From the NCBI GenBank assembly GCA_029261055.1, contig JAJDCA010000037.1, positions 82,818 through 146,817 of the forward strand: a DNA stretch of 64,000 bases, read 5' to 3'. Of the stretch, positions 33,378-63,795 are shown piece by piece. A program made the translations under genes and the position numbers. The DNA is from Candidatus Omnitrophota bacterium. Lineage in GTDB: Bacteria; Omnitrophota; Gorgyraeia; Zapsychrales; Zapsychraceae. The notes under the pieces are model-generated. The model did not search any database, had not been told where the DNA came from, and saw nothing but the letters and a program-made list of their open reading frames with translations. How positions within the stretch are numbered: position 1 is the stretch's first letter; each line of letters starts with the position of its first letter.

Positions 33378-33854
33378 CTATTTATTTCTATCTGTTAATT
33401 TATCAATCTTGCTCTCTACTATTTCTCTAACCATTTCTGTAGAGTGTCTCTGTTCTGATACTAACTTATCTATTAAATTTCTATTTTCTGCATGATCTGT
33501 TTGCTGTAATGTAACTAATTTTTCAACTGAATTTTTCTGTGATTCTACAGATACAGAAACAACTTGTGTAAGACCATCCAACGCTGCCGTAACATGATTA
33601 AGATGATTATCCAATGTTGTATCTCTACTTTGCACTAGTCCTACCATGTTTGTCATATTCTCCTTATGACCCTTAATCATATTTCTAATTAAAAAAAATA
33701 GAACACATGCGACAAATCCAGCCAATACAACTCCAAGACCATATTCTTGTGCAGCTTTACCCCAGCCGTCTATACCCCCTGCGTAACCAACAGAACTTGA
33801 CGCTGCTTCAGCAAGTAAAAAAACCACTAATCCTCCGATATGCTGGCATTGCAA
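33378..33854 (-). CDS. Small membrane protein (two predicted TM helices) within the head module
   Basis: Hydrophobic segments GGLVVFLLAEAASSSV and LGVVLAGFVACVLFFLI. Overlaps the portal gene end by 28 nt. Confidence 0.35.
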   Translation of the reverse strand: MQCQHIGGLVVFLLAEAASSSVGYAGGIDGWGKAAQEYGLGVVLAGFVACVLFFLIRNMIKGHKENMTNMVGLVQSRDTTLDNHLNHVTAALDGLTQVVSVSVESQKNSVEKLVTLQQTDHAENRNLIDKLVSEQRHSTEMVREIVESKIDKLTDRNK

Positions 33855-35920
33855 ATACTGAACGCCTTTTGCACAATTGCTCTCATGGCCTTTTTATTTG
33901 GGGCCTTGTCATGCTTTTTACGAAATTTAGCAACCTCTTCTTTAGTTACTGACTCTACACATCTGTCCAGCTTCTTGCCAGACTTTGACTTAAGTGCATT
34001 CTTTACTAAATCTTTGGTCCACCTATTTTCGCATACTAGTTGCGGCAACGCTTTGCCTATATTATCTATAATATTTATACGATCTGCCTCAGTTAAGTCT
34101 CTCAAGCTATCGTATTTGGCATTATCTGCTATCGTTGTTGCTATCATCTTGTATAGCTTATCAAAACCATTGTCTATCCTGTCTCTAGGTATAGGAGTTT
34201 TTTTAGCCGCTGTCTTTTGACCCTGTGGGCTATCTGGCTGAGTCTGCTGCTGTTGTTTTTTCTTTGTCCCTGGCGGTCGTCCACCCTTCTCACCTTCTCC
34301 GCCCTGTTGTGCTGGATCGTTACCATCTATGTCGTCATCATTAAGTAGTTGAGCTATATTTGATGTAAATTTACCGATTCTTAATAATGCATGATCTGAT
34401 TCTTGTTCTAAGACTTTTCTTTTAGCATCCTCTCTTCTGATTCTCTCTACTTCTATCCCTATATCTTCTCCAAACCTATCAAGAAGTGTTTCAAATGATA
34501 TTACATTGCGATCAAATAGCTCTATCATAAACCTTTTTTCCACTTCTTCGTCTGTGAGTGACATTTTCCCTATGCGCACAATTGGCGATTTTCTAAATCT
34601 CATGTTTCTTGAAACAATATTGACTTGCTCAACCCAAAACGACTCTAATATCTTTTGTCCAGTCTCAAGTCTCTCCATTAGCGTTTTTATAGCTAGAAAA
34701 CTATTGGAAAAGTTTCCACCCTCTCCGTTTATTAATGCTTCCGGTATTCCTAATCCTGCACGAATGTCTGCATCAACTTGCTTATACTTTTCCGCTGAAA
34801 AGAAATTTTCAACTGGTGGAAATACTGTTTCTATTGAAATTAGGTCGTCCCAGACTATGGTTTTGCTCTTGTGGGGATTCATTAACATTGATGTTAATTT
34901 TTGGTATTTCTTTTTAGATGGCAAGAATCCTTTTTCAGTAGATCCAAGTTTCACAATTGTTAAGGCATTTGTTACGCCTTCAGCAACAGATATATCCATA
35001 TTTCGAATAAGTTTTTTAAATTTAACATCAGGTATTACTCTCCAAAGCAACGGAGTAGCCCATGAGCGATATCCGTCTCTTTTGTAATATAGCATCTTTA
35101 GTCTATTTTTAGGAAGATTTATAAATCCAGTGCTTTTAAGTTTATCAAATGTATCAGTACCTATACCTATTTGCTTTTCAAAATTATCTATAGCCTTGTC
35201 TCTGTCTTCTCCAATTTGAGTAGACGTATTTACGCTCTTAAGCCCAAGATCTTCTGGACTGAATCTATATGACCACCCAACAGTGTCTAATAATTCGCTT
35301 CCTGTTCTAAACACTCTTAGCACGTCTAGCATTTCGTATCTAAAAGGAATTACATTTTTAACAGGTATTTCTGGATCTAGTATTCGTGAACTAACAAATT
35401 TTTTCTCTTCTGCTGATGACTTACGCATACGGTTTATTTCTTCTTCGTTAAGTTCACCGAAAAAGCTTAGTATGGGTACATTTCCGTCACGATATACACC
35501 CTTTAGTATTTGCTCCGACACTTCGTATGTTTTGGCAGTTTTCATCCATTTTTTAAAAAACTGTTTTATTTTTTCATCATTATGCTGAATTTCCAAATCT
35601 TCTAATGCAAAATCTACCATTATATCTATGATGTTGCCGATAATGCCTACATTTTCGTATGCTTCACGACATGAGGCTATCCTCTGATGAGTTTCTGCCT
35701 CATCATTTGTTCCATTTATCTGTGTGTTTCCATTAAATGATATTCTATTGTAGTCTAGATTAGTAAAAGCATTGGCCTTACTAAAAACACTGTCAACTGG
35801 CATACTAATAGATGCTCTCATATCATCTTTGGCGAGTATTCCGTCCCACGCCTTAGCTTTTTTGAATAGTGTTTGATTGGCCTTATTTAAAAATGGATTG
35901 TCTGAATCTTTATTTGGCAT
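33827..35920 (-). CDS. Portal protein candidate (697 aa)
   Basis: Large ORF immediately downstream of the large terminase, of the right size. The C-terminal Lys/Gln-rich extension is unusual. Confidence 0.5.
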   Translation of the reverse strand: MPNKDSDNPFLNKANQTLFKKAKAWDGILAKDDMRASISMPVDSVFSKANAFTNLDYNRISFNGNTQINGTNDEAETHQRIASCREAYENVGIIGNIIDIMVDFALEDLEIQHNDEKIKQFFKKWMKTAKTYEVSEQILKGVYRDGNVPILSFFGELNEEEINRMRKSSAEEKKFVSSRILDPEIPVKNVIPFRYEMLDVLRVFRTGSELLDTVGWSYRFSPEDLGLKSVNTSTQIGEDRDKAIDNFEKQIGIGTDTFDKLKSTGFINLPKNRLKMLYYKRDGYRSWATPLLWRVIPDVKFKKLIRNMDISVAEGVTNALTIVKLGSTEKGFLPSKKKYQKLTSMLMNPHKSKTIVWDDLISIETVFPPVENFFSAEKYKQVDADIRAGLGIPEALINGEGGNFSNSFLAIKTLMERLETGQKILESFWVEQVNIVSRNMRFRKSPIVRIGKMSLTDEEVEKRFMIELFDRNVISFETLLDRFGEDIGIEVERIRREDAKRKVLEQESDHALLRIGKFTSNIAQLLNDDDIDGNDPAQQGGEGEKGGRPPGTKKKQQQQTQPDSPQGQKTAAKKTPIPRDRIDNGFDKLYKMIATTIADNAKYDSLRDLTEADRINIIDNIGKALPQLVCENRWTKDLVKNALKSKSGKKLDRCVESVTKEEVAKFRKKHDKAPNKKAMRAIVQKAFSICNASISED

Positions 35921-36014: not shown

Positions 36015-39000
36015 TTATGTGAATTCATCAGACCATCCACCAATTGAGTTGTCGTCCTCGTATCTCTCTCTCAGGATCGCGTCTTTGTCATAATTTATCT
36101 CATCTAATCTCATGGCCATATAGTTAGCTAATAGAAATGAGGAATATCTATCTTTGTGCTTTACACCCTCTTCTTTTCTCTCGTCAGGTGGCTTTAAATC
36201 GAATGACTTCTTGCCTGTTTTAGTGTAGACTATTGTGATAGACGACAATTCTTTCTTTAATTCCGATACTTCAAACAGTATATCCTCTGCCTCGTCATCT
36301 AGGGCGCTAGTACTTGTGGTTACTGGAAACATGGTAAGCCTATCTTCAATATTTTTTTGAAGCAGGGTGTTTGACTCATCCAGCCACGCTGAGCCGAAAT
36401 TCTGTAAATTTAGTATTCGTAGCCCTTCTTTTGCCTCTTCGCTGTCGTCATCAAAATGATAAAACTTAGGTTCGTCTGGTTTACGAATTTCAAGACCATC
36501 ATCAGTTTTTTCCATATTTAACATTTCTTCTACAGCGTGGCCACCACCACCCGCATCCATGTTTATTCCAACAATGTTGAATCTTCTCCACAACTCTCTC
36601 ATGTGTGCTGCACATTCTGAATATTTTCTTTTTTGAGCAGTCCATTGATACACTAACTTGTGCGGTGTTCCGACCTCTATTATGGTGACAGCAAACCTAT
36701 CTAGCATTTTAGCTGGATCTACACCCATTACATACTGTCTCTTTGGCTTACCTCGCTTTAACACGGAAAAACCATTGGGCGGAGATGCTGTTGCTTCGCG
36801 TATCTGCTTGGCTTTATAGAATCCTGTACTGTCGTCTCCAAATAGCGTGTTGTACTCCATGTCGAACAATTGTTTTGGCATCTGTGACCTACTGGATTCA
36901 ATCACATCTTTTTCCATCATGCCATCTGGTATTGCCTCCCAGGGATAGCGCACGATACAGTAGTTATTGCAGTCAACCTCGTAGCCTTCGCGCTTTTCAC
37001 TTTCGTCAAATACATCACCGTGTTCGTCCACCGCACCCTTTACATTGTGTTTTATTATCTTCTGATAATGTGCGTAAACATGATGAAACGTCTCTCCTGT
37101 ATATCCTGCGGTTCCGGCCAATATAATTTTATTACCAGAATTGATATCTGACATAGCTAAATCTTCTGGCTCATTACCAATTGTACGAGCTTTTACCTTC
37201 TCCCAGGGGTCTAATTGTGTTGCAGCGAATCCACGCACTACTACATCAAATATTTCAATTGGAATTGAGTTGAACTCATCTGCCAGTATCACATGTCCAC
37301 GCTCTCCTCTAATTCTAGTATTGTGACTAAAGAATCCGTTTGCACAATACTCATGTCCATTTGGTACATGAATATCATATGTATGACCTTGACCATCGTG
37401 CTCTATGTCTGAAACTTTATCATAGAATATATTTGTATCATATAGATTTTCAATATCTTTAACTGTAGAATGATTAGTACCACCATGAACCCTTAAGAAT
37501 GTATTCGCCATCTTCCATGAAATATTTGATTTGTTTTTTAAATATCCATACGAACAATCTCTACTATTGTAGGAGCCTCTTGGTGCTCTAAACTCCTTGG
37601 AAAAACTTTTCACTTTGTCAATCATGTCTGGAAGATAATCGGAATGATTAACAAATCTTTTCTTATTTGCAATAATATTGTCTAGCCCATCTACTTTGCG
37701 AGATAAACGAAACCCTATTTTTTCATGAAATATTTTAAGATTGGCACCTCTTATTGTCAATTGATAACAAGTGTTCCATTTTTCACTACGATCACGTTTA
37801 TATACTGTTGCTACTATGCCGTAATGAAGCAGTATATATTGCAGTTGTTGAATTAGAATTTTGCTGGTATTATTAAACTCTACACATGTAGATCCTTCTC
37901 CAACATCAACAACACCTCCGTCTGAGTCCATTAGTCCTTTTATAAATTCTGTAACAACATGTCTTTCTGCACACATTATACTTTCTGGTATTCGTTTATC
38001 TTTTGTGCTAACATGTTTGTAAGATACTCCAAACTTAGACATAAAATTACTTTTGACAGACTTTCCATATGCATTGTAGTGACACCCATCTGTCGCAGGA
38101 ACAAAATTCCCAATTACACAAACAGCTTCAGCCAACTCCTGATCTTTTGTGGCAAATCCAATATTGTATTTGTCTTTAATACTGCCATCACCTATTATTA
38201 GTCCTAATGCATATGATTCATCTGGTGTAATGCTATTTGCCCCCTTGTGCCAGCGAATAGATCTGTCTATCAATACATGATCTGATTCAGTTATTTCATC
38301 AAATCTTGACCATATGATGTCTCCATCTCTAACAATTTTAACTTTGTGATTTTTTGTGCCACTAATTTCAAATCCACGAGAAGTACGAATTTTGATAATA
38401 TCTGTATAGCGATTATAATAAGACTCATTCGTTGACCTCATTTCCCCATTGCCCCAGACAGTTCTATTCCTATGAACTATGTTTTCGTTTTGGTCAACGT
38501 CTTCTGGTTGATCGTCTGATATGGTTCCAAATCTATCTCCATAAGTCACCATAGTGTCTGGACTTACACAGCCATCTCCCATTGGCAATGCTGTGACACT
38601 TGATCCACATATTTCTAGCTTCCAGCTATCCTGATTATGTACCGGCTCTCTCTCCATCATTTGACTCAACAATGGAGATTTTTTAATCATTTTTTCCATC
38701 TCATTGAAGACCAGCTTGGATTGTCTGAAGCTAGCTGAGACTAATATTATCCTTGAATATGGAAACATGATAGCATGATACAATGAATATGTAGCTAAGC
38801 TAAATGTCTTTCCGGCACCCCTTGACAATAATAGCAATGGAAACTTGTGTCTCAGCATTGCTATTATCATTGACATTTGGAATGGGAATAATTTTACACC
38901 TAGTAAATACTTTATACCAAAGGCAGGAGAATAGAATGGATTGCAGAGCTTGTAAAATTCCGTAAGCTCATCTTTTTCTTTCTGGTCCTCTCTAACATCT

Positions 39001-39101
39001 AATAATGGATTTATTAGTAATCTTTTATCTGGAATATTGTTCATCCACTCATAATCTGGATGAAATACTTTTGCAATTCTAGATATCTGTTTTGAGTCCA
39101 T
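36015..39101 (-). CDS. terL: Terminase large subunit interrupted by an intein (1028-aa precursor; about 611-aa mature TerL)
   Basis: Walker A LLLSRGAGKTF lies before the intein. Walker B-like HVILADEF follows immediately after the intein. The C-terminal half is nuclease-domain sized. RBS GAGGA upstream. Confidence 0.85.
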   Translation of the reverse strand: MDSKQISRIAKVFHPDYEWMNNIPDKRLLINPLLDVREDQKEKDELTEFYKLCNPFYSPAFGIKYLLGVKLFPFQMSMIIAMLRHKFPLLLLSRGAGKTFSLATYSLYHAIMFPYSRIILVSASFRQSKLVFNEMEKMIKKSPLLSQMMEREPVHNQDSWKLEICGSSVTALPMGDGCVSPDTMVTYGDRFGTISDDQPEDVDQNENIVHRNRTVWGNGEMRSTNESYYNRYTDIIKIRTSRGFEISGTKNHKVKIVRDGDIIWSRFDEITESDHVLIDRSIRWHKGANSITPDESYALGLIIGDGSIKDKYNIGFATKDQELAEAVCVIGNFVPATDGCHYNAYGKSVKSNFMSKFGVSYKHVSTKDKRIPESIMCAERHVVTEFIKGLMDSDGGVVDVGEGSTCVEFNNTSKILIQQLQYILLHYGIVATVYKRDRSEKWNTCYQLTIRGANLKIFHEKIGFRLSRKVDGLDNIIANKKRFVNHSDYLPDMIDKVKSFSKEFRAPRGSYNSRDCSYGYLKNKSNISWKMANTFLRVHGGTNHSTVKDIENLYDTNIFYDKVSDIEHDGQGHTYDIHVPNGHEYCANGFFSHNTRIRGERGHVILADEFNSIPIEIFDVVVRGFAATQLDPWEKVKARTIGNEPEDLAMSDINSGNKIILAGTAGYTGETFHHVYAHYQKIIKHNVKGAVDEHGDVFDESEKREGYEVDCNNYCIVRYPWEAIPDGMMEKDVIESSRSQMPKQLFDMEYNTLFGDDSTGFYKAKQIREATASPPNGFSVLKRGKPKRQYVMGVDPAKMLDRFAVTIIEVGTPHKLVYQWTAQKRKYSECAAHMRELWRRFNIVGINMDAGGGGHAVEEMLNMEKTDDGLEIRKPDEPKFYHFDDDSEEAKEGLRILNLQNFGSAWLDESNTLLQKNIEDRLTMFPVTTSTSALDDEAEDILFEVSELKKELSSITIVYTKTGKKSFDLKPPDERKEEGVKHKDRYSSFLLANYMAMRLDEINYDKDAILRERYEDDNSIGGWSDEFT
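37320..38570 (-). mobile_element. Intein (417 aa) with a LAGLIDADG homing endonuclease domain, inserted in the TerL ATPase domain
   Basis: Block A CVSPDTMV follows extein ...ALPMGDG. Block B GTKNHKV. Two LAGLIDADG motifs (LGLIIGDGS and FIKGLMDSDGG). Blocks F/G HTYDIHVPNGHEYCANGFFSHN are followed by extein Thr (TRIRGERGHVILADEF). Coordinates are derived from residue positions 178-594 and are accurate to ±2 nt. Confidence 0.8.
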
Positions 39102-39558
39102 TTCTTATTTCCTCACGATACAAAAATGCTCGTATCAACAAACTTCTAACTATCTTGTGTGCCATCTTTCTACTACCTGCAAAGATTATACTCACATTGT
39201 ACTTCATTGATAACGCTAGTATGCTTTCAAACACTGCATTTGGCGGAATTTTCGCATATCTATTTTTTTTATATATTGACGACCAATGATCTTCGACAAC
39301 TATATATCTGCGAGCGGAAGATTGCATTCTCTCCAGCTCTCTTATGAATCTTTTTCTATGCTTTCCAACATTGGCAGATAGTTCATCTGCGCTCTTTTTA
39401 CGTTCAATTGTGATAAGGTCTTCATGACCTTCGATTCCGTAATCACCGTGATCCAACTTCTTGTGTATTACTAACTCTATTGATTTGCCAGGTTTAAAGT
39501 CATATGGCATTTGCTCTCTTGAATCTATTACAATTGTTGGTAATTCTTTGTCTGACAT
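39079..39558 (-). CDS. ERCC4/XPF-Mus81-family (PD-(D/E)xK) structure-specific nuclease, 159 aa
   Basis: Full ERCC4 signature: IVIDSRE ... LDHGDYGI ... ITIERKKSADELSANV (VxDxRE / GDY / ERKx3D). RBS AGGAAGG upstream. Its 3' end overlaps the terL start by 23 nt. Confidence 0.7.
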   Translation of the reverse strand: MSDKELPTIVIDSREQMPYDFKPGKSIELVIHKKLDHGDYGIEGHEDLITIERKKSADELSANVGKHRKRFIRELERMQSSARRYIVVEDHWSSIYKKNRYAKIPPNAVFESILALSMKYNVSIIFAGSRKMAHKIVRSLLIRAFLYREEIRNGLKTDI

Positions 39559-39584: not shown

Positions 39585-40148
39585 TTATTTACACAAGCCT
39601 TTTGCATCTAGAAGTGCTTTGGCCAAACCCTCAACATCTTGCTTACTGAACCAACTGGTATCTTTTTGGCGCTGTTGCACTTTTGTCGACTTGTTTTTTG
39701 GTTCTTGGTTCAAAAATATTTGTGCCTGATCTTCAATATACGTATCAATACTCTTTTTAATTTCAGACAATTGTAGTGTAGTTTTATCGATAATGTCATT
39801 AAGATCACTGATTTTTTTACTATCATGTTTAATATCATGCTTAGTACAAAAGGACAGGGTGAGCATTGCTTTGGCCTGCTTTATCCTGGCCTCAATAGCA
39901 CGTTTAACAGTGTTTCCCATCATGTCTGGATTATACCAAGGTTCATGCACTATTTCTTTTTCTGGACCAAACATAAGCCTGCCCTCCAAGGCATCTATCT
40001 TTGTTTGTAGATCAACCTCTTGATTATGTATAGCGCTCCACTCATTACCGGATGCTCTACTGTCTAAGTTTAGGCGCTCTTGAGTTTTTGCAGAAAGCTG
40101 CTGCTTAAGTTGTTCGATGTTATCCACTACCATCTCCTGTAAAATCAT
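39585..40148 (-). CDS. Coiled-coil protein (187 aa) in the packaging module
   Basis: Heptad-like Gln/Glu/Lys-rich sequence. No motif recognised. Confidence 0.4.
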   Translation of the reverse strand: MILQEMVVDNIEQLKQQLSAKTQERLNLDSRASGNEWSAIHNQEVDLQTKIDALEGRLMFGPEKEIVHEPWYNPDMMGNTVKRAIEARIKQAKAMLTLSFCTKHDIKHDSKKISDLNDIIDKTTLQLSEIKKSIDTYIEDQAQIFLNQEPKNKSTKVQQRQKDTSWFSKQDVEGLAKALLDAKGLCK

Positions 40149-40971
40149 TAGATAGACCGCTTGGCTCTACTCCAGACTTGAACTCTAAATTTGTATCGTA
40201 CTTGTCGTTTTTGCCAGAATGTATACGTTTTCCTATTTTTTCATTGTAATCTTTTCTGGTCATCCAGCGGAACATAGCAGCCTCGTTCCCGACCTCGCTA
40301 CGAATAGTTGGATTCTGTAAGTCTTTTATTAGTGTTGTAAAATTTACAGCTTGGTCAGAGCTGTTCTTGAGTCTCTGCTCACGAGTTACATTTAGTGACT
40401 TTTCACATTCTTTAATAACGCTATTGCAGTCACCAATCTCCTTACTCTTGTTTGCTATCCACTTTCGCTGTTCCTCTTTCTCCTGGTCTGTTAATTTTTT
40501 ATTCAGTTCTATTGCATTGAAGCTATCTAAAGCACGTTTCTCTTCGGCCATAAACCGCAATAGTCTAACTTCAGCCAATGTTTTTCTATGTAGCGTATCT
40601 TTTTCAGCTGATGTCATAGTCTCGATAGTTGGGTCCATCATAAAATCCATGTAGCGCTCTTGGTAAAACTCTATTTCATGTTTCTGCAACACAGCTTTAG
40701 TCTGTTTAAACTGTGCTGTTCTTTTTAACTCTGCCAACAAAAATGACTCTTTATCGCCTTGGCTTAGTCCAGAAATGTAAGATCCACGATACTGACCCTC
40801 TATGTCTTTCTTTGGTTCTGTAGCCTTGGTCAACTTCATTCGTTCTCGTGTTTTTGTTACAGATGCACGAGTTCTATCAAGCCTATTTGCTATCTGCTGA
40901 TCTGTTAAAAGCAGATAATTAGCAGAAAGAAAATTTTTATCGTCTTGTGACCACTTGCCTCTTTTTGCCAT
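40120..40971 (-). CDS. Putative terminase small subunit / HTH DNA-binding protein (start taken at Met11)
   Basis: N-terminal HTH-like segment WSQDDKNFLSANYLLLTDQQIANRLDRTRASVTKTRERM. Charged, oligomerisation-like remainder. Lies two genes upstream of terL. Confidence 0.35.
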   Translation of the reverse strand: MAKRGKWSQDDKNFLSANYLLLTDQQIANRLDRTRASVTKTRERMKLTKATEPKKDIEGQYRGSYISGLSQGDKESFLLAELKRTAQFKQTKAVLQKHEIEFYQERYMDFMMDPTIETMTSAEKDTLHRKTLAEVRLLRFMAEEKRALDSFNAIELNKKLTDQEKEEQRKWIANKSKEIGDCNSVIKECEKSLNVTREQRLKNSSDQAVNFTTLIKDLQNPTIRSEVGNEAAMFRWMTRKDYNEKIGKRIHSGKNDKYDTNLEFKSGVEPSGLSNDFTGDGSG

Positions 40972-40973
40972 GT

Positions 40974-41537
40974 TTATCCTTTGACTAGGCGACCTGTACA
41001 TTCATCGCATTGGGTGGACCCTTGAACCTTTGTGTCAAACTGACGATGACAGACATCGCAAACGCACTTGAATAATGAAATTCTACGATTAGTTTGTGTT
41101 ACACTTGCTTTACCTGGCCTCACTGCTTTTCCATTTGCATCTACTTCCGGTGGCGGAATAAGCTCACTCTCAAGCATCGGTGGCTGATTATCAGAATCAT
41201 TGTTAGTTTCTGTGGGTTTGGGCTCTACGGATACCGTGGGCTCTGCCTTTTGTAATGTGGACACATGTGTTTCTTGCGGCTTTTTTACAACTAGTGGTTT
41301 TGCCTCATTACTTTCACCCTCTATTGGAGATATAGGCAATGAAACTTCTCCGCCATTTAAACTCTTGTAGAATATGTAAAAACCATCACAATTAGGACAA
41401 CTTACATATGATGCATCTCTATTCCCTTCCATTAATGGCGCAAGATTAGACATAAAACTATCATCTATCCCTTTTGCCATTTTTAAATCTGCTGACCCTC
41501 CCAGCCATCCACAGCTTCCACACATTGAAATGATCAT
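40974..41537 (-). CDS. Zn-ribbon protein (187 aa)
   Basis: Cys clusters CGSCGW, CPNCDG and CVCDVCHRQFDTKVQGSTQCDECTG. Confidence 0.4.
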   Translation of the reverse strand: MIISMCGSCGWLGGSADLKMAKGIDDSFMSNLAPLMEGNRDASYVSCPNCDGFYIFYKSLNGGEVSLPISPIEGESNEAKPLVVKKPQETHVSTLQKAEPTVSVEPKPTETNNDSDNQPPMLESELIPPPEVDANGKAVRPGKASVTQTNRRISLFKCVCDVCHRQFDTKVQGSTQCDECTGRLVKG

Positions 41538-43408: not shown

Positions 43409-45364
43409 CTATTGGATTTCACAGGCTCCACCCTGACAACTGATTTCCTTTGATCCTGTAGTATTGTCATCTATTTCAAATTTAGAGAGTTGACTATAAT
43501 CTATTTTTGGTAATTGTTTTTTCATTATGTTGTATTTTTTTTCATTTATAGATTCAAAAGGGGGCTGTTCGTAGTGTCCAGAATCAAACGGTAAAAACGA
43601 AACGCCGGTAATATATTTCCAGTTTTTATACACCCAGTTACCAACCTCCAGCCACTCGTCTTCTTTAACAAATATTGTGGCGCTAGCATTATGTTCACAC
43701 CAATGCTCCTGAATCTTTTTATAGTGTTCAAGCTGCTCAATAGCCGTCATGTCGTCTCTTAGTACAGACCCTTTGGGGGCAGCTACAGGGAACGATACAA
43801 CCCATGTATTAACCTTATCTTCCGTCCATCTCTTTCCCTTTTCATATATTATACACTTTTCTATATCACCCTTTTGTGCCATTTTCCAATCCTTCAATCG
43901 TTCTCCGTTTTCTGGTGACATCGGAAAGTTTTGATCTTTTAGCATTTGACACAGGGGATCTATAGAGGAGATTCTATAGCGCCTAATATAGAATTTAGAG
44001 AAACGACCATGTATTCCAGACGACGAGTTTACTAATTGTGAAACTGTTCCAGATGGTTTTACTGTGGTGATAGCTGTAGAGAAATTAATCCCAAGAACCT
44101 TTGATGCCTTTTTGGCGATCTTAATAGCTTTCTTTTTCATTGCTTTTAGTGCTATTGGGGTCAACATATCAATATTGTCCATCTGTCCAGTTAACGATAT
44201 TCCCAATAGCCTCTCTTCATTACAGTTTCTCTTCCACTTTTGAGATAGGTAAGAAAAATTTGTATAAGTTGATTGAAGCGCCCCTAACCATGCTGCTGTT
44301 TCTATTTTATCTAAGATATCGTCTAGGTCATCATTTGGACGAATAACAACTTCGGTCAAGTTACACATTTGGCATGATCTTAAAATTATCTCAGCACACG
44401 GATTACATCCTGCTAAAAGATTTGTTTTTCGTCTATCCGGTGATCTCTTTATTGCACCCTCTAGATTAAAAATCCCTCTTTCTCCAGTTCCGCTTTTTGC
44501 TAAAGCAGACCACTCTTCCATAAAACTAATAGCCCCAGGCTTATCCCTATATATTGTTGATATATTCGCCATCGCTCTATGTAATGGAAATGGCCAAGTC
44601 TTGGCCCCTCTAATTTCTTTGTCTGATAAGTCTGATAGAGCCAATTGAGAGCTTCTTCTAACACCCCCTACAACAACTACTTCAGCTATTTTATTTAAAA
44701 TATCCAAGCACTCAATAGATTTTAGCTGTCTGCCCTGCGCCTCAATAAAAATCATTCTAATAAAGTCGTGAAGAGTTATTAGTGGTTGTTTGCCAGAAGA
44801 CCTTCCTCCAAATGTTTTTAATCTTGCTCCCTTTGGTCTAAGTAATCCATAATCAAAGTCCATATCTTTTCCAGCATATAGTGCCTTCATAAGATATTTA
44901 ACAGAATCAGCCCATCCCTCTTTTGAATCTGGAACTATGAAGGTTCCTGCACCTTCTCCAAGCATCTTGCTGATGGTTGGTAATTTATCTACATATTTAT
45001 TTTCTACAGAAAATCCATAACCAGTTCCACACATTAGAATGTACAAACATTCAGCAAACGCCTCAATGCAGTCAATATTTTGATAGGAGCAATTATATAG
45101 TGCTGCATGAACTTTATTTCCAGCGTCTCCAGCAGCCCATAATGCCCTCATGCTGCCCATAACTGAAAAATTTAACATATAGTTTCTAGCTTTACGAAAC
45201 ACCTTTTGTGGAACACTATCACCATTGCCCTGTTCTAAAAACGTAATATATCTATCTACTGTCTCATCCCATGTTTCTCTGCGATTTTCCTCTTCTAGCC
45301 AACGCGAATAAGTCCTGGTGTACACAAATTCAGCCGCTTCATTTGCAAACTCTACTCTACTCAT
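43409..45364 (-). CDS. nrdJ: Ribonucleotide reductase, class II (adenosylcobalamin-dependent, NrdJ-like)
   Basis: Active-site loop GCNPCAEIIL (class II SNPCGEI). C-terminal redox pair CQGGACEIQ. N-terminal ETWDETVDRY. Start chosen at the Met preceded by AGGAGA (track start 45466 would overlap the upstream gene by about 90 nt). Confidence 0.7.
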   Translation of the reverse strand: MSRVEFANEAAEFVYTRTYSRWLEEENRRETWDETVDRYITFLEQGNGDSVPQKVFRKARNYMLNFSVMGSMRALWAAGDAGNKVHAALYNCSYQNIDCIEAFAECLYILMCGTGYGFSVENKYVDKLPTISKMLGEGAGTFIVPDSKEGWADSVKYLMKALYAGKDMDFDYGLLRPKGARLKTFGGRSSGKQPLITLHDFIRMIFIEAQGRQLKSIECLDILNKIAEVVVVGGVRRSSQLALSDLSDKEIRGAKTWPFPLHRAMANISTIYRDKPGAISFMEEWSALAKSGTGERGIFNLEGAIKRSPDRRKTNLLAGCNPCAEIILRSCQMCNLTEVVIRPNDDLDDILDKIETAAWLGALQSTYTNFSYLSQKWKRNCNEERLLGISLTGQMDNIDMLTPIALKAMKKKAIKIAKKASKVLGINFSTAITTVKPSGTVSQLVNSSSGIHGRFSKFYIRRYRISSIDPLCQMLKDQNFPMSPENGERLKDWKMAQKGDIEKCIIYEKGKRWTEDKVNTWVVSFPVAAPKGSVLRDDMTAIEQLEHYKKIQEHWCEHNASATIFVKEDEWLEVGNWVYKNWKYITGVSFLPFDSGHYEQPPFESINEKKYNIMKKQLPKIDYSQLSKFEIDDNTTGSKEISCQGGACEIQ

Positions 45365-45374
45365 GCTTCTCCTA

Positions 45375-46550
45375 TTAGTGCAAATTATGCTCATTGGCTT
45401 TGCGGGTGTAGAATTTACCACCGACCTCAGCAAAATCCCTAACATCTGTATAGTTGAATACAACATCTTTGGTTTCTGTGTCTACATGAATAATAATAAA
45501 CCCATTTGACCATTTTTCACCATCGCAATATGATGCATCCCTATAATGCATACCTCCCAACTGATGCCATTCATATGATCTGCGATTTACGTTATAATCA
45601 TGCCAAACTAAATGATGATGATGATGCCCATTAATTCCTGGCATTCCAGCAATATTACGACCCTGCGGTTCATGATGAACCAAAAATGCGTCATCGTATA
45701 TTTTGAAACTACGAGCAACTTGATTATTTTCGTCACCCTTATTCCATGCAGTAAGGTCAGCTTTGCCAATATAATTTATCTCAAATTTATCTAACCCCAA
45801 CATTTCTCTAACGCCCATATTATGAACTTCAGAGAGTATTGACATTGTTGCTGCATCAGCATTACACATATGCTTAACTAATCTAAGCTCGTGATTGCCT
45901 TCAATCATGTCGATCTGTGCATCACCAGCGGCTTTGCGAACTGGTTTTAGTATCTTTTCGTGAACAAATTTAATTCTGCCAGCGGCATCCCATGTGCGAG
46001 GATCTACTGGAAATCTACCAAACTCTGGCAGGTCAAATATGTCTCCGGCCAGTATCACTCCTGCTAATTGTCCAGCCTTTTTAATACGTGATATTGTATC
46101 AACAAACACTCGCAGGCAAAAGGGATCGCACTCTTTATCGTGGAAGTCTGATGCTGCAACGTATGTTTTTATTCTTCCTTTGGCTGGACGACTAAACTTG
46201 TCCGCCCAAGTTGCTCTCTCAGCATTCATTTTCCTATATATATCAGCATCTTTATGCTTGGCAATATCATTGGCTAGTTTTTTCTGCCCCCTAGTTGGGG
46301 TTATGTTTGCCGCCCTTTGAAATGCCGGAAATGTTCCAAAGTACTTCTCCCAGTGAGAGTCTTTTATCTGTGTTCTGGTTCTAAAGTATCCTCTGCTTAG
46401 CGTGGTACATCCATCATCTTGACGAAACTGCCAAAGTCCCTTTATCAATGTTATGAAATCCTGCTCTGTTAGTTTACTGGCTATTTTGTCTGGTATTTTC
46501 TTTCCAGATTTAATAGCATCATTGAAATATTCTGTTTTTGTTTTTGACAA
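45375..46550 (-). CDS. Calcineurin-like metallophosphoesterase with an N-terminal extension of about 120 aa
   Basis: Motifs ASDFHD (DxH), AGDIFD (GDxxD), EGNHE (GNHE), and histidine-rich GINGHHHHHL. Confidence 0.65.
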   Translation of the reverse strand: MSKTKTEYFNDAIKSGKKIPDKIASKLTEQDFITLIKGLWQFRQDDGCTTLSRGYFRTRTQIKDSHWEKYFGTFPAFQRAANITPTRGQKKLANDIAKHKDADIYRKMNAERATWADKFSRPAKGRIKTYVAASDFHDKECDPFCLRVFVDTISRIKKAGQLAGVILAGDIFDLPEFGRFPVDPRTWDAAGRIKFVHEKILKPVRKAAGDAQIDMIEGNHELRLVKHMCNADAATMSILSEVHNMGVREMLGLDKFEINYIGKADLTAWNKGDENNQVARSFKIYDDAFLVHHEPQGRNIAGMPGINGHHHHHLVWHDYNVNRRSYEWHQLGGMHYRDASYCDGEKWSNGFIIIHVDTETKDVVFNYTDVRDFAEVGGKFYTRKANEHNLH

Positions 46551-46558
46551 GGTTCCTC

Positions 46559-47656
46559 CTACTTTAGTCCGTGAGCACCATTTTCTCCATAGCCAAGCGG
46601 TGTCACTGGTGTAAATATAGCATTTTCATACATTTCTTTAATAGTTCCTGCGTTCAGATATGTCATGCCGGAACGTAATCCTCCAATTAGATCATCCACG
46701 ACACATTCTACTGGCCCCCTACACTCTACCAATGACAACTCACCCTCTGGTGTTCTCTTTTTCGCTATGCCGTCCCAGCCATCCATTGCTGACTGCGATG
46801 CCATGCCTTGATATTTTTTAAATCTAGGCCCTTCACTATATCCTGGACCACTGATACCGACCTCACCATCTTTAAATTGGTGCGGCCCACTAGTTACTAT
46901 TTCTCCTGGAGTTTGATCGGTTCCTGCTAATAAGCTACCCAGCATTACAGAAGAGGCACCAGCGCTTAGTGCTTTGACTATATCTGAAGAGTTCCTAACA
47001 CCACCGTCTGCTATTACAGGCACATTGTACTTTTTAGACGCAGCCGAACATTCTAGGACAGAGGAAAACTGTGGTACTCCGCAGCCAGTAACTACTCTAG
47101 TTATGCACAGTGAACCGCAACCCACTCCGACCTTTATAGCATCTGCGCCAGCTTCACACAGCCTCTTTGTCCCTTCTTCTGTGGCTACGTTTCCGGCTAT
47201 CACATCCCATTCTGGGTATGTCTTTTTTATATATGTAATGAGATCGACTACACGTTCACAATCACCATGCGCAACGTCAACGCAGACTCCAGTAGCTAAC
47301 CTATCTTTATGCTCATAGATTGCTCGCAGCGTCTCTTTATTTCCCTTGCCTAAGCCTATCGAAAAAAACCTATTCTCACAACCGTAAAGTTCTGCCTCTA
47401 AAAGATTCTTTATCATATCTTCGCATGACATAAATCTGTGCAATATGGCTGCACCACCCATTTCGTCCATAGCCACCATCATGCCACTCTCTGTAACGGT
47501 GTTCATATTTGATGCTATAATGGGAATGTTTATAGACTTGTTTTTGGTAAATTTTGTTGTCGTGGTAACGTCATCGCCATATCTAGACACTTTATCTGTA
47601 TATTGCGGCCTCAATAGGACATCATCATAGCTGAGTCCATAATCTGTGAATTTCAA
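46559..47656 (-). CDS. guaC: GMP reductase / IMPDH-family enzyme lacking a CBS domain (GuaC-like)
   Basis: Near-collinear with E. coli GuaC: IPIIASNMNTV, CVDVAHG, VIAGNVAT, GADAIKVGVGCGSLCITRVVTGCGVPQ (catalytic Cys loop), VIADGG, IGGLRSGMTY. TTG start with an AAGGTAGG RBS. Confidence 0.7.
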   Translation of the reverse strand: MKFTDYGLSYDDVLLRPQYTDKVSRYGDDVTTTTKFTKNKSINIPIIASNMNTVTESGMMVAMDEMGGAAILHRFMSCEDMIKNLLEAELYGCENRFFSIGLGKGNKETLRAIYEHKDRLATGVCVDVAHGDCERVVDLITYIKKTYPEWDVIAGNVATEEGTKRLCEAGADAIKVGVGCGSLCITRVVTGCGVPQFSSVLECSAASKKYNVPVIADGGVRNSSDIVKALSAGASSVMLGSLLAGTDQTPGEIVTSGPHQFKDGEVGISGPGYSEGPRFKKYQGMASQSAMDGWDGIAKKRTPEGELSLVECRGPVECVVDDLIGGLRSGMTYLNAGTIKEMYENAIFTPVTPLGYGENGAHGLK

Positions 47657-47716
47657 TATAACCTACCTTGGTATTTAATTTTAATGGCTGTTTGGAGTAT
47701 AATATACGACAATATA

Positions 47717-48658
47717 CTATTCTTCAATGGCTTTTCTCATCATTGTTGCCAAGTCTTGAATCTCGCGTTGCGCGTGTGAATGTTCTCGTAATCCCAAAAC
47801 CCTCTCCATTGCCTTGTTGGTGGCTGTCATGTAAACTTTACTCATCATATTCTGCGGTAGTATCATTCTTGCCATTTCTGGGGCAGTGCCATTTTCTAAC
47901 ATTGTATTATATGCTAATAAACTTCTATCAAGTGTATTTTCTAATTCATCATTATTCATGTATTGAATATCTAAATCAACTTCATCTCCGCTACCCTGCT
48001 TTATACTCTTGTCTGGTCTTTTTCTCCACACCTTGGGTTTAAAAAATTTAGGCTTGTCATCTACGTACCGTCTAGATACTTCGTTGTATGTTACTCCAAC
48101 ATTTGACCTCATCAGCTGTCGAAAGACGAATATTGGTGCCTCTATTAGTAGTGTCACACATTCCGACTCTAGCTCTTCAAAATTTAATGATTCTGTTATA
48201 TTCTTGGGTTCTCCAAATTTATTTATAATGGCATCATATGAAATTGGAGCCTTTTTACGAATACAGTTTAGCACTTGAGATGGTATTTCTGGAGGAGGAT
48301 TAGTTAGCCATCCATACAACGAATCTTCTATTATGACTGTTCCAGCACCGTATGGATCTGATTTATCGACTTCGAATACTGATCCTGGTGATGTTGATAG
48401 CCACTTTGCTAGCTGCCATGTCAAACTTACGCTAAACTTAAACCTATATCTAGCATGGGTTAATGGCGTAAAATGATTGTTATTTACTAAATATTTAATA
48501 AGTCCATCGTCTGGTCCCATGCCATTTTCGGATTTTCTAGCATCTGCTTCCGGTGTATTTGACATTACAATATTATCAACGGTTTTGTCCATCGAAACAC
48601 GAGCGGAATTAACAACCGTTAGGTCGCTATTATTATGATTAATTCTTAATACTTTCAT
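47717..48658 (-). CDS. thyX: Flavin-dependent thymidylate synthase ThyX homolog (divergent: RHR motif replaced by RSN, about 90-aa insertion)
   Basis: Blocks SARVSMDKT / LIKYLVNNNHFTPLTHARYRF / APIFVFRQLMRSNVGVTYNEVSRRYV / EMARMILPQNMMSKVYMTATNKAMERVLGLREHSHAQREIQ align with Thermotoga ThyX. Confidence 0.8.
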   Translation of the reverse strand: MKVLRINHNNSDLTVVNSARVSMDKTVDNIVMSNTPEADARKSENGMGPDDGLIKYLVNNNHFTPLTHARYRFKFSVSLTWQLAKWLSTSPGSVFEVDKSDPYGAGTVIIEDSLYGWLTNPPPEIPSQVLNCIRKKAPISYDAIINKFGEPKNITESLNFEELESECVTLLIEAPIFVFRQLMRSNVGVTYNEVSRRYVDDKPKFFKPKVWRKRPDKSIKQGSGDEVDLDIQYMNNDELENTLDRSLLAYNTMLENGTAPEMARMILPQNMMSKVYMTATNKAMERVLGLREHSHAQREIQDLATMMRKAIEE

Positions 48659-58032: not shown

Positions 58033-58204
58033 GCCAGATTTGAGATGATCATGCTCACCGAGCCATTTGCCTTTCCTTGCGGAAACTTCAAGAATCATAG
58101 CTAGGCTATTCTCGCTCAACTTAAAGTCTTTTTGTTCGTACTGGACTATTGTTACGTTGTCTTAACCATATAGGGATTCGGGCAACGCAACTCAATATTT
58201 AAAA

Positions 58205-58278
58205 TACACTCATTAGGATTCGAACCTAAAACCTACAGGGTAGAAACCTGTTGCTCTATCCATTTGAGCTATGAGTGC
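58205..58278 (-). tRNA. tRNA-Arg (anticodon UCU), 74 nt
   Basis: Manual cloverleaf: acceptor GCACTCA/TGAGTGT(A), D-arm GCTC-AAATGGATA-GAGC, anticodon arm ACAGG-TTTCTAC-CCTGT, variable AGGTT, T-arm TTAGG-TTCGAAT-CCTAA. Lies 12 nt downstream of the preceding CDS. Confidence 0.8.
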
Positions 58279-58289
58279 ATAGCTTATTC

Positions 58290-62766: not shown

Positions 62767-63269
62767 TGATTAACACTGAATATAACTACAAAGAACCAAC
62801 ACACTGCTATACGTGTGAATGCGAGCTTGGTAAACCATTCACGTATGGGTTAGGAGATGACGAAGACAAGCTTACATTTTGTTCTGTTGACTGTATGTGG
62901 AAACAAAAGCATCATCAAGATGCTGCTCTTGATGTGTTCATGAATGACTGGTATGCACACAAGTTTCGTAGCATTATGGCATTTTCAGTCATTCTATTTC
63001 AGTTAATATGTATCACTACTTTTATCATAATGTTCTCTGATATTTTTTCATGGGGTATTCACATATTGTGGCTACTAATTGTACCAACCGCTCTTATTGC
63101 TATTGGTGCCAATGAGTTGTTTTCTATTAATAGAGAAAATCGCAAACTTAGCGGTGAAAATCCATATGGTAACATTGATGATGATGAACAGAAATTCTGG
63201 TACGATTCTTCCTGTAATGATATAAAAAACACCTTTGACGGCATTATGGAAGAGCGTGAGGATGACTAA
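62766..63269 (+). CDS. Membrane protein with an N-terminal Zn-finger-like segment (167 aa)
   Basis: CYTCECELGK ... CSVDCMWKQKHH, then two TM helices. Confidence 0.4.
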   Translation: MINTEYNYKEPTHCYTCECELGKPFTYGLGDDEDKLTFCSVDCMWKQKHHQDAALDVFMNDWYAHKFRSIMAFSVILFQLICITTFIIMFSDIFSWGIHILWLLIVPTALIAIGANELFSINRENRKLSGENPYGNIDDDEQKFWYDSSCNDIKNTFDGIMEEREDD

Positions 63270-63795
63270 CAAGATAATAGATCGTTTTATTGATTTGTGG
63301 GACTATATTAGATATCTACCATATAGAATTTATATCGATATGAAATATTGGTCAACTAACTTGCGTAGAATTATAGACTTTGTACCCATTGTTTGGAGTG
63401 ATTATGATTTTGATTGCCAAAGTGGACTTTATATGCTAATATACAAGAAGCTTGAAAGACTTGAGCCATGTTTACGTAATGGGCATTTGCTTAATGGTGA
63501 AAAATACGCTAAAGAAGTTCGAAATGTTATGCTTGTTCTTGAAAGAATAATGGCAGATGACTATTGTTTTGAAGAGCGCTTAGACCATTTAAAAAAATGG
63601 GGCCAATATCGTATTGGTAGAGCTAATTCAGACGAAAAAACATTTTGTAATTTATTTGTCACTACCGAAGAGGAAGAGAAGTTGTGTAAGTCGGAATATT
63701 TTGACATTATAACAAAACAGGGGCATTTATTACAAAGAGATATTGATTGGGTGTTTCGAATTATTGGAGAGCGCCATTTGTATTGGTGGGATTAG
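63262..63795 (+). CDS. Hypothetical protein (start at the ATGACTAA overlap)
   Basis: The track ORF starts at 63235. MTNKIIDRF begins at the stop of the upstream gene. Confidence 0.35.
   Translation: MTNKIIDRFIDLWDYIRYLPYRIYIDMKYWSTNLRRIIDFVPIVWSDYDFDCQSGLYMLIYKKLERLEPCLRNGHLLNGEKYAKEVRNVMLVLERIMADDYCFEERLDHLKKWGQYRIGRANSDEKTFCNLFVTTEEEEKLCKSEYFDIITKQGHLLQRDIDWVFRIIGERHLYWWD

Follow-up and report, generated by a model that had tools for sequence, protein, structure and literature searches.

A small ERCC4-type nuclease gene conserved next to the large terminase gene in uncultured phages

Results

Genes at the locus

In the window (the whole stretch of 64 kb that was analyzed), a gene for an ERCC4-type nuclease is followed by the genes of the large terminase (TerL) and the portal protein; the nuclease gene thus opens the packaging module (Table 1).

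Table 1. Features of the ERCC4-terL locus, with positions counted from the first nucleotide of the window
Feature	Coordinates	Strand	Basis or remark
terL-linked ERCC4 (XPF/Mus81/Hef-type) nuclease gene, 159 aa, single domain	39079..39558	-	ATG-started ORF
D12-S-R14-E15, first acidic/metal-binding motif (DxRE of XPF; VIDSRE)	39514..39525	-	translation; aligns with DSRE of Hef
G38-D39-Y40, GD of the GDXnERKX3D signature	39439..39447	-	translation; D39 is D in 97/97 copies
E52-R53-K54-K-S-A-D58-E59, ERK motif	39382..39405	-	family-conserved acid is E59 (ERKx4E)
23-nt overlap ATGGACTCAAAACAGATATCTAG of the ERCC4 3' end (including the TAG stop) with the terL 5' end	39079..39101	-	
TerL, 1028 aa before and 611 aa after splicing	36015..39101	-	Pfam Terminase_6N, Terminase_6C; PHROG 2/38/9
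Intein in TerL, 417 aa, LAGLIDADG homing endonuclease	37320..38570	-	Pfam LAGLIDADG_3 E=1.5e-21, Intein_splicing E=7.5e-13
Portal protein, 697 aa, directly downstream of TerL	33827..35920	-	PHROG 16240, E=1.7e-10
Orphan ORF, 187 aa, between HTH protein and ERCC4	39585..40148	-	no significant family match
Conserved helical protein of ~275 aa, N-terminal GcrA-like HTH	40120..41001	-	upstream of the ERCC4-terL pair
Sigma-70-family phage factor	41550..42260	-	Pfam Sigma70_r2 E=3.6e-10

The ATPase and RNase-H-like nuclease motifs of TerL are intact, with D378 (GVDPA), D432 (MDAGGGG) and D567 (KDRYS) invariant among 17 TerLs. We therefore rejected the idea that ERCC4 compensates for a nuclease-dead TerL. 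When the TerL profile was compared with the PDB, the ATPase domain alone was aligned, with T7 gp19. The intein is inserted at GDG^T(R/K)IRG, just before Walker B, with the boundaries C...HN|T, and intein-free TerL homologs of 605-610 aa exist. A protein of 660-730 aa comes after TerL in all related loci.

Upstream of ERCC4, the window encodes RNR, dUTPase, ThyX, the sigma factor (also found in the relative L001) and the GcrA-like HTH protein. The latter, possibly a regulator or TerS, occupies this position both in the clade of the window and in the largest of the related clades. Family and fold searches identified no TerS at the locus. The orphan ORF has no homolog in any fetched related locus, and ERCC4 directly adjoins the HTH gene in L001, L003 and L007. 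One homolog of the upstream protein carries the label 'Candidatus Pacearchaeota', which is probably a mis-binning, since a sigma-70-type factor and Shine-Dalgarno sites are present. An HNH profile built from genes upstream of ERCC4 in related phages gave no significant match to any ORF of the window, the best one (E=0.027, + strand ORF 63235..63795) being below the inclusion threshold.

Domain and fold of the ERCC4 protein

The first-pass annotation, which gave no strand for the gene, had called the protein an ERCC4 nuclease devoid of HhH2 and had proposed Pfam and fold comparisons, which agree with it. The Pfam scan matched PF02732 with 46.5 bits (E=4.6e-12; profile positions 1-137 of 140), above the curated cut-off of 24 bits, and no unrelated family came up. 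ERCC4 is the sole domain that Pfam detects in the protein, and PF02732 is present in 27/27 of its homologs. Residues 8-141 match PHROG 3490 (E=5.7e-25, 89.3 bits). In the AF2 model, a single alpha/beta domain with the restriction-endonuclease-like fold of the XPF nuclease domain is followed by a long C-terminal helix (residues 130-152). Because nothing but a single helix follows the alpha/beta domain in this model, the C-terminal tandem (HhH)2 of full-length XPF, Mus81 and Hef is absent. Since it consists of the nuclease domain only, the protein is a relative of XPF, Mus81 and Hef rather than an orthologue of any of them.

A phmmer search of the PDB with the single sequence returned only noise (SET8, FKBP), and a family profile was needed. 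No HNH-type match (beta-beta-alpha-metal, CxxC zinc site) was obtained in Pfam or PHROG, nor any match to a TerS family or fold. A second ERCC4 paralog, the possible partner in a heterodimer, gave no significant match within the 64-kb window, so a homodimer is expected.

Catalytic motifs

D12, R14 and E15 are invariant among the 27 homologs. In the alignment of 97 locus copies, D12, E15, D39, E52, R53 and K54 are kept in all of them and R14 in 96, so the catalytic triad, on which the ERCC4 assignment hung, is not lost. The protein had also been credited with the complete ERCC4 signature. VIDSRE, GDY and ERKKSAD are indeed all there, but the x3D residue, D58, is not conserved in the family, being D in just 7/66 terL-linked copies. 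The conserved acid is instead E59, which gives ERKx4E in 66/66 terL-adjacent copies and in 67/69 copies of the TerL-anchored sample described below. The literal ERKx3D match in the window protein is thus partly coincidental.

Copies from non-terL contexts are different: 26 of 31 have Asp in the column of E59, and their aligned segments are nearly all ERKx3D. The ERKx4E form arises from an insertion of one residue relative to the canonical ERKx3D, and the signature (DxRE plus GDXnERKX3D) is present in the window protein with its last acid one position later than usual. As judged from the alignment, the terL-linked copies are a distinct subfamily, with ERKx4E where the others have ERKx3D. Two proteins that looked like tandem ERCC4 proteins (P0070 and P0089) have a zinc ribbon, one ERCC4 domain with DRK for ERK and a partial second segment, and they were uninformative.

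Linkage to terL in uncultured phages

The first-pass annotation had called for a synteny survey of related phages, and its outcome was strongly positive. Of the 80 IMG/VR loci that match the nuclease best, 62 have a TerL homolog directly downstream of ERCC4, and the same arrangement is found in L001-L003. In a second sample of 80 loci, anchored on TerL, ERCC4 is found at most one gene upstream in 73 (47 immediate, 26 one gene away), and most of the remaining 7 have no room on the contig for it; gene calling in both surveys was by crude ORF picking. In the cases examined, the gene between the two encodes a ClpP-like or trypsin-like protease, a probable prohead protease. Pairwise identities of ERCC4 and TerL are correlated (r=0.89), a value reached by 0/2000 Mantel permutations, and ERCC4 is kept with TerL across a TerL divergence down to ~30% identity. 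The linkage is conserved, and ERCC4 co-diverges with terL and carries its own subfamily signature. We found no description of the linkage in the literature.

A small HNH gene is present in 55/80 of the TerL-anchored loci, against 73/80 for ERCC4, and many relatives carry both nucleases in the order HNH, ERCC4, (protease), TerL. The first-pass annotation put ERCC4 in the usual slot of an HNH cos-nuclease, which would imply a replacement; since many relatives encode both, ERCC4 comes in addition to the HNH and does not stand in for it.

A megablast of positions 35-43 kb against the INPHARED phages gave no match. The closest cultured TerLs (Bacillus phages Slash, Staley and Basilisk, the SPbeta group and Microcystis MaeS) are only ~24% identical, so the lineage has no isolate model. 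Searching genome contigs with a narrow ERCC4 alignment retrieved just 10 contigs, from MAGs of various bacterial phyla.

The overlap of ERCC4 and terL

The start of terL has a GAGGA Shine-Dalgarno sequence 8 nt upstream of the ATG and is backed by its closest homolog, in which the N-terminus is conserved (MDSKQISRIAKVF vs MDSVQIARIAKVF). The overlap between the ERCC4 stop and the terL ATG, as first described, is real, but it extends over 23 nt and is not a 4-nt ATGA overlap. Most related loci show abutting genes or ERCC4/terL overlaps of 8-41 nt. These overlaps vary in relative frame (-1 and -4 vs -20 and -23), which led us to drop a programmed frameshift producing an ERCC4-TerL fusion.

No minus-strand terminator-like site was found between ERCC4 and terL. 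Around the ERCC4 gene, scans for promoters and terminators did no better than on shuffled sequence. As no such site separates the two genes, and as they are tight or overlapping on one strand, they are probably co-transcribed. An overlap at the start of the packaging module fits the earlier suggestion of co-expression.

Distribution of ERCC4 nucleases

XPF/Mus81-family nucleases are textbook repair enzymes of eukaryotes and archaea. The ERCC4 fold was accordingly introduced by the first-pass annotation as typical of these two domains, an older view also taken in a 2012 survey (PMC3424549). This restriction is due for retirement: our family profile matches 8,172 cluster representatives at 50% identity, the top matches among them being mostly stand-alone proteins of 145-200 aa, and at least 540 IMG/VR viral stretches encode an ERCC4 relative. 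A previously undescribed phage class is also too strong a description of the gene, since the name 'ERCC4-type nuclease' has already been given to PHROG 3490, and viral copies are annotated in Halorubrum tailed viruses, magroviruses, Bacillus phage vB_BteM-A9Y and ASFV (EP364R). We found no biochemistry on any phage ERCC4 in the literature. Phage ERCC4 nucleases as such are thus already known, and what we found no description of is the tight linkage to terL: in hundreds of contigs of uncultured phages, the gene of the packaging ATPase almost always has beside it one for an XPF-type version of ~155 aa, without HhH2. ERKx4E together with terL adjacency offers a simple annotation rule, separating packaging-linked copies from those of replication modules.

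Discussion

We suggest that ERCC4 is a minimal nuclease which would debranch concatemers for packaging and would be made together with the large terminase, a reading to which we give an even chance. The ERCC4 nuclease domain alone would form a homodimeric, Mg2+-dependent, structure-specific endonuclease, with dimerisation and substrate preference both predicted. It would be produced with TerL, probably from one late transcript, and the overlapping stop and start could possibly couple the translation of both. In the replicated and recombining concatemer, the enzyme would cleave forks, flaps and junctions, whether nicked or intact, and thereby leave unbranched duplex for the packaging motor. Branch removal is the job that seems unfilled, because the nuclease residues of TerL are invariant and many relatives have a terminase-type HNH. 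On this analogy, ERCC4 would plausibly be a functional counterpart of T4 gp49 and T7 gp3 with a different fold.

Two points temper the proposal. The (HhH)2 domain helps XPF-family enzymes to bind and position DNA and, since it is absent here, the activity and specificity of the bare nuclease domain are uncertain. Another resolvase may also be encoded elsewhere in the ~155-kb genome, beyond the 64-kb window. If the debranching role is true, this would be a third independent fold for the problem of branches that block packaging, beside T4 endonuclease VII and T7 endonuclease I, and the smallest natural XPF-type nuclease, a model for substrate recognition without HhH2. A closer association could be imagined, in which the ERCC4 dimer docks on TerL or the portal as a dedicated third packaging component of this large lineage and clears or processes DNA structures at the motor. 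We consider this doubtful; if true, it would be the first demonstrated role of the XPF family in bacterial viruses.

Alternatively, ERCC4 could be a general nuclease of replication, recombination and repair, acting on forks and flaps like Hef or Mus81, with a terL position that was merely inherited and no tie to packaging. Homologs of 33-40% identity do occur in replication modules: the one in L005 is accompanied by an AAA_24 ATPase, methyltransferases and a primase, several IMG/VR loci have a RecD2-like helicase or a primase downstream, and both ORF14 of Bacillus phage A9Y and the magrovirus copies belong to replication genes. In the window itself, the gene stands at the border between the structural module and the genes for nucleotide metabolism and transcription (RNR to the GcrA-like regulator). 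More distant homologs, with the canonical ERKx3D, sit in such replication modules; the ancestral role may have been replication or repair, and the place beside terL an inherited order. Against this, the terL-linked copies are a subfamily of their own, and it is the head and packaging genes that ERCC4 stays with, while its upstream neighbour varies (HTH, orphan ORF, HNH or a ~330-aa protein). In one sub-lineage it even lies between HNH and the probable prohead protease, inside the morphogenesis block. We thus find a role without any tie to packaging unlikely. It overlaps with the debranching proposal in any case, since T4 gp49 and T7 gp3 act in both recombination and packaging.

The same position next to terL could point to a nuclease that assists the terminase holoenzyme in making genome ends (cos or pac cutting, end trimming), as the HNH partner of the HK97 type does. 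Its place immediately upstream of terL, overlapping it and conserved down to ~30% TerL identity, is in agreement with such a role, as are its greater constancy compared with the small HNH and its occupation of a slot usual for small terminase or HNH genes at a locus where no TerS was identified. However, with the TerL nuclease residues invariant, no trans-acting cutter is obviously needed, many relatives already have a terminase-type HNH beside ERCC4, and a protease gene separates ERCC4 from terL in one sub-lineage. Moreover, we know of no sequence-specific end-making activity in the XPF/Mus81 family. A part in making ends is quite unlikely in our opinion.

Genes for counter-defence tend to be early and variable, with a patchy distribution, whereas ERCC4 is near-universal in the lineage and stays with late structural genes. 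An enzyme for counter-defence or host takeover that degrades cyclic-nucleotide immune signals or host DNA is thus very improbable, the more so as the full metal-binding set of a DNA nuclease is conserved. It was considered because our viral-model fold search, which also returned giant-virus homologs, retrieved ASFV EP364R (E=1.5e-6), reported to act on 2',3'-cGAMP (PMC9364804). That resemblance is weak (17-18% identity, TM about 0.65), much weaker than the one to Hef and XPF. Hardly credible, finally, is a selfish free-standing gene of homing type lodged by terL: terL is a common target of mobile nuclease genes, in this lineage repeatedly invaded by LAGLIDADG inteins (window, L002, L009, L012, L077 and L098) and with small HNH genes clustering nearby, but ERCC4 is to our knowledge no homing-endonuclease fold, its position and overlap are conserved, and its presence in 73/80 loci (with no contig room in most others) and its co-divergence with TerL have already largely refuted the idea.

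Comparison with known systems

In Hef, a helicase stands at the N-terminus and (HhH)2 at the C-terminus, and archaeal XPF combines (HhH)2 with a PCNA-binding tail. The nuclease domain of archaeal Hef (P. furiosus, PDB 1j22-1j25) and the short archaeal XPF of A. pernix (2bgw) are among the closest known systems. The phage protein differs from them as a bare nuclease domain of ~155 aa with one long C-terminal helix, which carries the ERKx4E insertion and is encoded by a viral gene adjoining terL. In the eukaryotic structure-specific endonucleases Mus81-Eme1/Mms4 and XPF-ERCC1, an active subunit pairs with an inactive paralog and HhH2 is among the additional domains, unlike the single ERCC4 found in the window.

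Among viruses, PHROG 3490, the Halorubrum viruses, the magroviruses, A9Y ORF14 and the window all have small ERCC4-only proteins. HRTV-25/27 of Halorubrum show 33-35% identity to the window protein by tblastn, and HSTV-2 is its top viral fold match. The contexts are different: the magrovirus gene is in a replication block, A9Y ORF14 is grouped with DNA replication and repair genes, and a role in DNA repair has been proposed for the ERCC4 of Asgard viruses, whereas the window copy is fixed next to terL. EP364R belongs to a eukaryotic virus and has no terminase context.

By removing branches from phage DNA that has been replicated or is recombining, T4 gp49 and T7 gp3 allow the terminase to fill heads. 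This is the job we propose for ERCC4, proven in their case, and their folds are unrelated or only distantly related to it (HNH-like in gp49, a different PD-(D/E)XK branch in gp3). Neither gene is adjacent to terL, unlike that of the window. In this respect ERCC4 is closer to the small HNH endonuclease of the HK97 gp74 type, which lies beside the genes of cos-type terminases and is conserved with them (PMC3592412, PMC9410871): both are small terminase-adjacent nuclease genes, with different folds and motifs.

Gene context of the ERCC4 nuclease

ERCC4 lies on the minus strand, like every large gene around it (Table). Along it, the order is ThyX, dehydrogenase, metallophosphoesterase, class II RNR and dUTPase, then a 212-aa unknown protein, a sigma-70-family factor, a 187-aa protein without family, a 293-aa protein with an HTH at its N-terminus (the HTH protein), an orphan 187-aa ORF, ERCC4, TerL, portal, a scaffold-like protein and further structural genes. 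The nucleotide-metabolism block upstream of the packaging genes has the same order in the related locus L001.

Table. Features of the ERCC4 region and of the surrounding window.
Feature	Position	Strand	Remarks
Very large ORF, 2045 aa	15591..21728	-	Within structural region; possibly tail fibre, tape measure or virion-associated giant protein
TerL (large terminase), 1028 aa, spliced 611 aa	36015..39101	-	Pfam Terminase_6C detected
Intein, 417 aa	37320..38570	-	LAGLIDADG homing endonuclease; inserted at GDG^T(R/K)IRG (window GDG^TRIRG), just before Walker B
ERCC4 nuclease, 159 aa	39079..39558	-	ATG start
Orphan ORF, 187 aa	39585..40148	-	Between HTH gene and ERCC4
HTH protein, 293 aa	40120..41001		Upstream of ERCC4-terL pair
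Nucleotide-metabolism block	43409..48658	-	ThyX-type thymidylate synthase, IMPDH/GMP-reductase-like dehydrogenase, metallophosphoesterase, class II ribonucleotide reductase, dUTPase
tRNA-Arg(TCT), single	58204..58279	-	Amid small early-type ORFs

Translation recovered the three motifs read in the first-pass annotation, VIDSRE (D12, R14, E15), GDY (38-40) and ERKKSAD (52-58). The overlap with terL that it described is real, but on the minus strand, and it consists of 23 nt between the terL start and the ERCC4 stop (shared stretch ATGGACTCAAAACAGATATCTAG) rather than a stop/start ATGA. A GAGGA lies 8 nt upstream of the terL ATG, and this start is credible since the closest intein-free homolog has a nearly identical N-terminal peptide. 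The terminator scan found no minus-strand terminator-like site between ERCC4 and terL, and promoter and terminator scans around ERCC4 were otherwise no better than chance.

The length of TerL is due to its intein. Other intein-expanded TerLs are found in the related loci L002 (1017 aa), L012, L077 (1037 aa) and L009 and L098 (1457 aa, probably with two inteins), while intein-free relatives have 605-610 aa. Across 17 aligned TerLs from the breadth of the lineage, GVDPA (D378), MDAGGGG (D432) and KDRYS (D567) are invariant (spliced numbering), and we take these aspartates to be the catalytic residues of the RNase-H-like nuclease, in line with other terminases. With the TerL profile, a PDB search aligned the ATPase domain alone; a TerL without its own nuclease is ruled out by the invariant motifs together with Terminase_6C.

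The HTH protein is conserved upstream of the ERCC4-terL pair, with hmmsearch E-values as low as 1e-11, both in the window clade and in the large clade. It was considered as a small terminase (TerS), but it has no significant PDB profile match and its PHROG is a transcriptional regulator, so no TerS was recognised. Its homolog P0182 (68% identical) comes from a contig of 168 kb that was deposited under the name 'Candidatus Pacearchaeota archaeon', and the relative L087 was binned as Deltaproteobacteria. MAG labels are mixed and unreliable, and in both cases a viral contig has probably been binned into a MAG by mistake. The orphan ORF matched nothing significantly in Pfam or PHROG, and no homolog of it turned up among the ~175 related loci fetched; it looks like an insertion specific to this lineage, in a string of genes that is otherwise conserved.

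A nuclease-domain-only member of the ERCC4 family

The sole Pfam match of the protein is ERCC4 (PF02732; 46.5 bits against a cut-off of 24, E=4.6e-12), covering nearly the full profile, and the PHROG match (phrog_3490, E=5.7e-25) is already labelled 'ERCC4-type nuclease'. Searching the PDB with the single sequence was uninformative; a profile of 27 homologs retrieved the nuclease domain of Pyrococcus furiosus Hef (E=3.3e-10), followed by FANCM and Aeropyrum pernix XPF. The AlphaFold2 model built from the same 27-homolog alignment is confident (pLDDT 93.5, pTM 0.87) and shows a single alpha/beta domain followed by a long helix (130-152). No (HhH)2 domain was detected in the 159 aa, and there is no room left for one. 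Thus both the family placement and the missing HhH2 domain of the first-pass annotation hold. Every feature of the ERCC4 domain that was checked is present, but the (HhH)2 of full-length XPF, Mus81 and Hef is not, so we class the protein as a nuclease consisting of the ERCC4 domain alone, not as an orthologue of XPF or Mus81.

Residues D12, R14, E15, G38, D39, Y40, E52, R53, K54 and E89 are unchanged in 27/27 homologs, and six of them (D12, E15, D39, E52, R53, K54) in all 97 copies collected. In the profile alignment they fall on the DSRE, GDY and ERK of Hef, and by XPF mutagenesis they are the counterparts of the XPF residues for metal binding and catalysis. Judged by its residues, the phage protein is apparently an active, nuclease-domain-only family member.

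Distribution of ERCC4-only proteins

The family profile matched 8,172 cluster representatives at 50% identity among 1.84 billion proteins searched (5,147 at E<=1e-10), and nearly all of the top 150 matches are stand-alone proteins of 145-200 aa. A pattern scan of IMG/VR confirmed at least 540 viral stretches encoding an ERCC4 relative. The view that the fold is typical of archaea and eukaryotes, found in an older survey (PMC3424549) and repeated in the initial annotation, is therefore outdated. Annotated cases of ERCC4-type nucleases span nearly all magroviruses (PMC10160649), Bacillus phage vB_BteM-A9Y (PMC10535572), the Halorubrum tailed viruses 25 and 27, and Asgard and haloarchaeal viruses. 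A fold search against viral models also recovered ASFV EP364R and giant-virus homologs. Since such nucleases are already common and annotated in viruses, and PHROG 3490 exists, a previously undescribed phage nuclease class is too strong a claim at the level of family membership; a biochemical study of a phage ERCC4 was not found in the literature. Two homologs of ~360 aa (P0070, P0089) combine an N-terminal zinc ribbon, an ERCC4 with DRK for ERK and a partial second ERCC4-like segment, and may be pseudo-dimeric or inactivated derivatives.

Linkage of ERCC4 to terL

Three long contigs with homologs 52-70% identical all carry, in this order, a ~270-aa protein, ERCC4, TerL and portal, while a 38%-identical homolog (~38-kb contig) neighbours an AAA_24 ATPase, methyltransferases and a primase. 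Two surveys were made, each on the best 80 loci and with simple longest-ORF gene calls, so the frequencies describe relatives of the window phage and not all viral ERCC4 genes.

In the ERCC4-anchored survey (80 of at least 540 IMG/VR loci, own ORF calling, blastp against four TerL seeds), a TerL homolog immediately follows on the same strand in 62 loci; 17 others have different neighbours, and one lies too close to the end of its contig. The spacing to terL is between -41 and +41 nt, mostly an overlap of 8-38 nt, with one locus at 172 nt and a small ORF between. The downstream proteins are terminases by Pfam (Terminase_6N, Terminase_6C or TerL_ATPase), by 30-36% identity to the window-clade TerL, and by tblastn (~24% identity to the terminases annotated in the Bacillus phages Slash, Staley and Basilisk). 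Grouped at 50% identity, the ERCC4 proteins form 20 clusters, of which 7 are terL-linked, so the raw count of 62 is inflated by one abundant clade; the linkage nevertheless extends over several deep sub-lineages.

The TerL-anchored survey (TerL-alignment scan, at least 597 confirmed stretches) placed ERCC4 directly upstream in 47/80 loci and one gene, occasionally two, further in 26, so the terL synteny proposed for survey holds from this side in 73/80. Of the remaining seven, three have no room on the contig and four lack ERCC4, two or three of these also without room. ERCC4 is thus near-universal in the head and packaging block of this TerL lineage, and no occasional passenger. In the cases examined, the intervening gene encodes a ClpP-like (PF00574, 9/12) or trypsin-like protein, probably the prohead protease; the insertion occurs in one sub-lineage (e.g. 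L109:2360-2998). Among 48 dereplicated pairs, ERCC4 and TerL identities are correlated (r=0.89, Spearman 0.80; 0/2000 Mantel permutations reached the observed value), with ERCC4 at ~32% identity where TerL is at 30-40%.

The linked copies share a variant signature. The final Asp column of GDXnERKX3D is replaced by a Glu one residue later, ERKxxxxE[LI], in 66/66 terL-adjacent copies, as well as in a copy on a truncated contig and in the one with the 172-nt gap; 67 of 69 alignable copies of the independent TerL-anchored sample also have ERKx4E. In non-terL contexts, 26/31 copies have Asp at the E59 column, and nearly all segments are canonical ERKxxxD. The window protein carries D58 beside E59, which is why its ERKx3D had looked perfect: the match is literal, but the conserved residue of the family is E59, D58 being variable.

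Members of the largest related clade, with a TerL of ~675 aa, have a gene for a ~90-aa HNH endonuclease with CxxC and HH motifs directly upstream of ERCC4, whose start it overlaps (e.g. L020:5700-5981, L034:5715-5990, L160:1567-1833). PHROG 119 and others were matched in 15/33 upstream proteins scanned; Pfam HNH_2 or HNH was matched too, and the HNH profile finds the gene in 55/80 TerL-anchored loci. Small HNH genes beside terminase genes are known in cos-type phages (PMC3592412, PMC9410871, PMC12967558). With both genes present in many relatives, ERCC4 is no stand-in for HNH, contrary to what the first-pass annotation implied. Profile search of the window gave no significant match to the relatives' HNH type, and no second ERCC4 paralog was found in it.

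Within the searchable literature, three points appear to be new: the ERCC4-terL linkage conserved over hundreds of uncultured viral contigs, ERKx4E as mark of the linked subfamily, and the recurrent order HNH, ERCC4, (protease), TerL, portal. Neither the fold nor its occurrence in phages is surprising; the strict tie to the packaging motor is a clean lead that can be tested.

Possible role in packaging

The active enzymes of the XPF family that have been studied cleave DNA where it branches, and T4 gp49 and T7 gp3 clear branches from concatemeric DNA so that packaging proceeds. Here, an XPF-type active site is intact on a minimal scaffold, the TerL nuclease is intact, HNH often co-occurs, and ERCC4 overlaps terL and is locked to and co-diverging with terL and the head genes. 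As TerL, alone or with HNH, would already account for end-making, the task remaining for ERCC4 would be the removal of forks, flaps and junctions that might block packaging. We give about even chances to ERCC4 debranching concatemers in this way. Inspection for other resolvases covered 64 kb of the ~155-kb genome.

ERCC4 could instead serve replication or repair in general and owe its place beside terL to inherited gene order alone, which we consider unlikely and which does not fully exclude debranching. Direct action in end formation with the terminase fits the gene overlap, but seems rather improbable with ends presumably made by TerL. A counter-defence enzyme like ASFV EP364R (PMC9364804), recovered by fold, is very improbable, and a selfish endonuclease gene is scarcely credible, being largely refuted by the co-divergence with TerL and the TerL-anchored linkage.

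The closest solved relatives of the phage protein are the nuclease domains of Hef and archaeal XPF, and its closest catalogued family is PHROG 3490. As a putative debranching enzyme, it would have the same role as T4 gp49 and T7 gp3.
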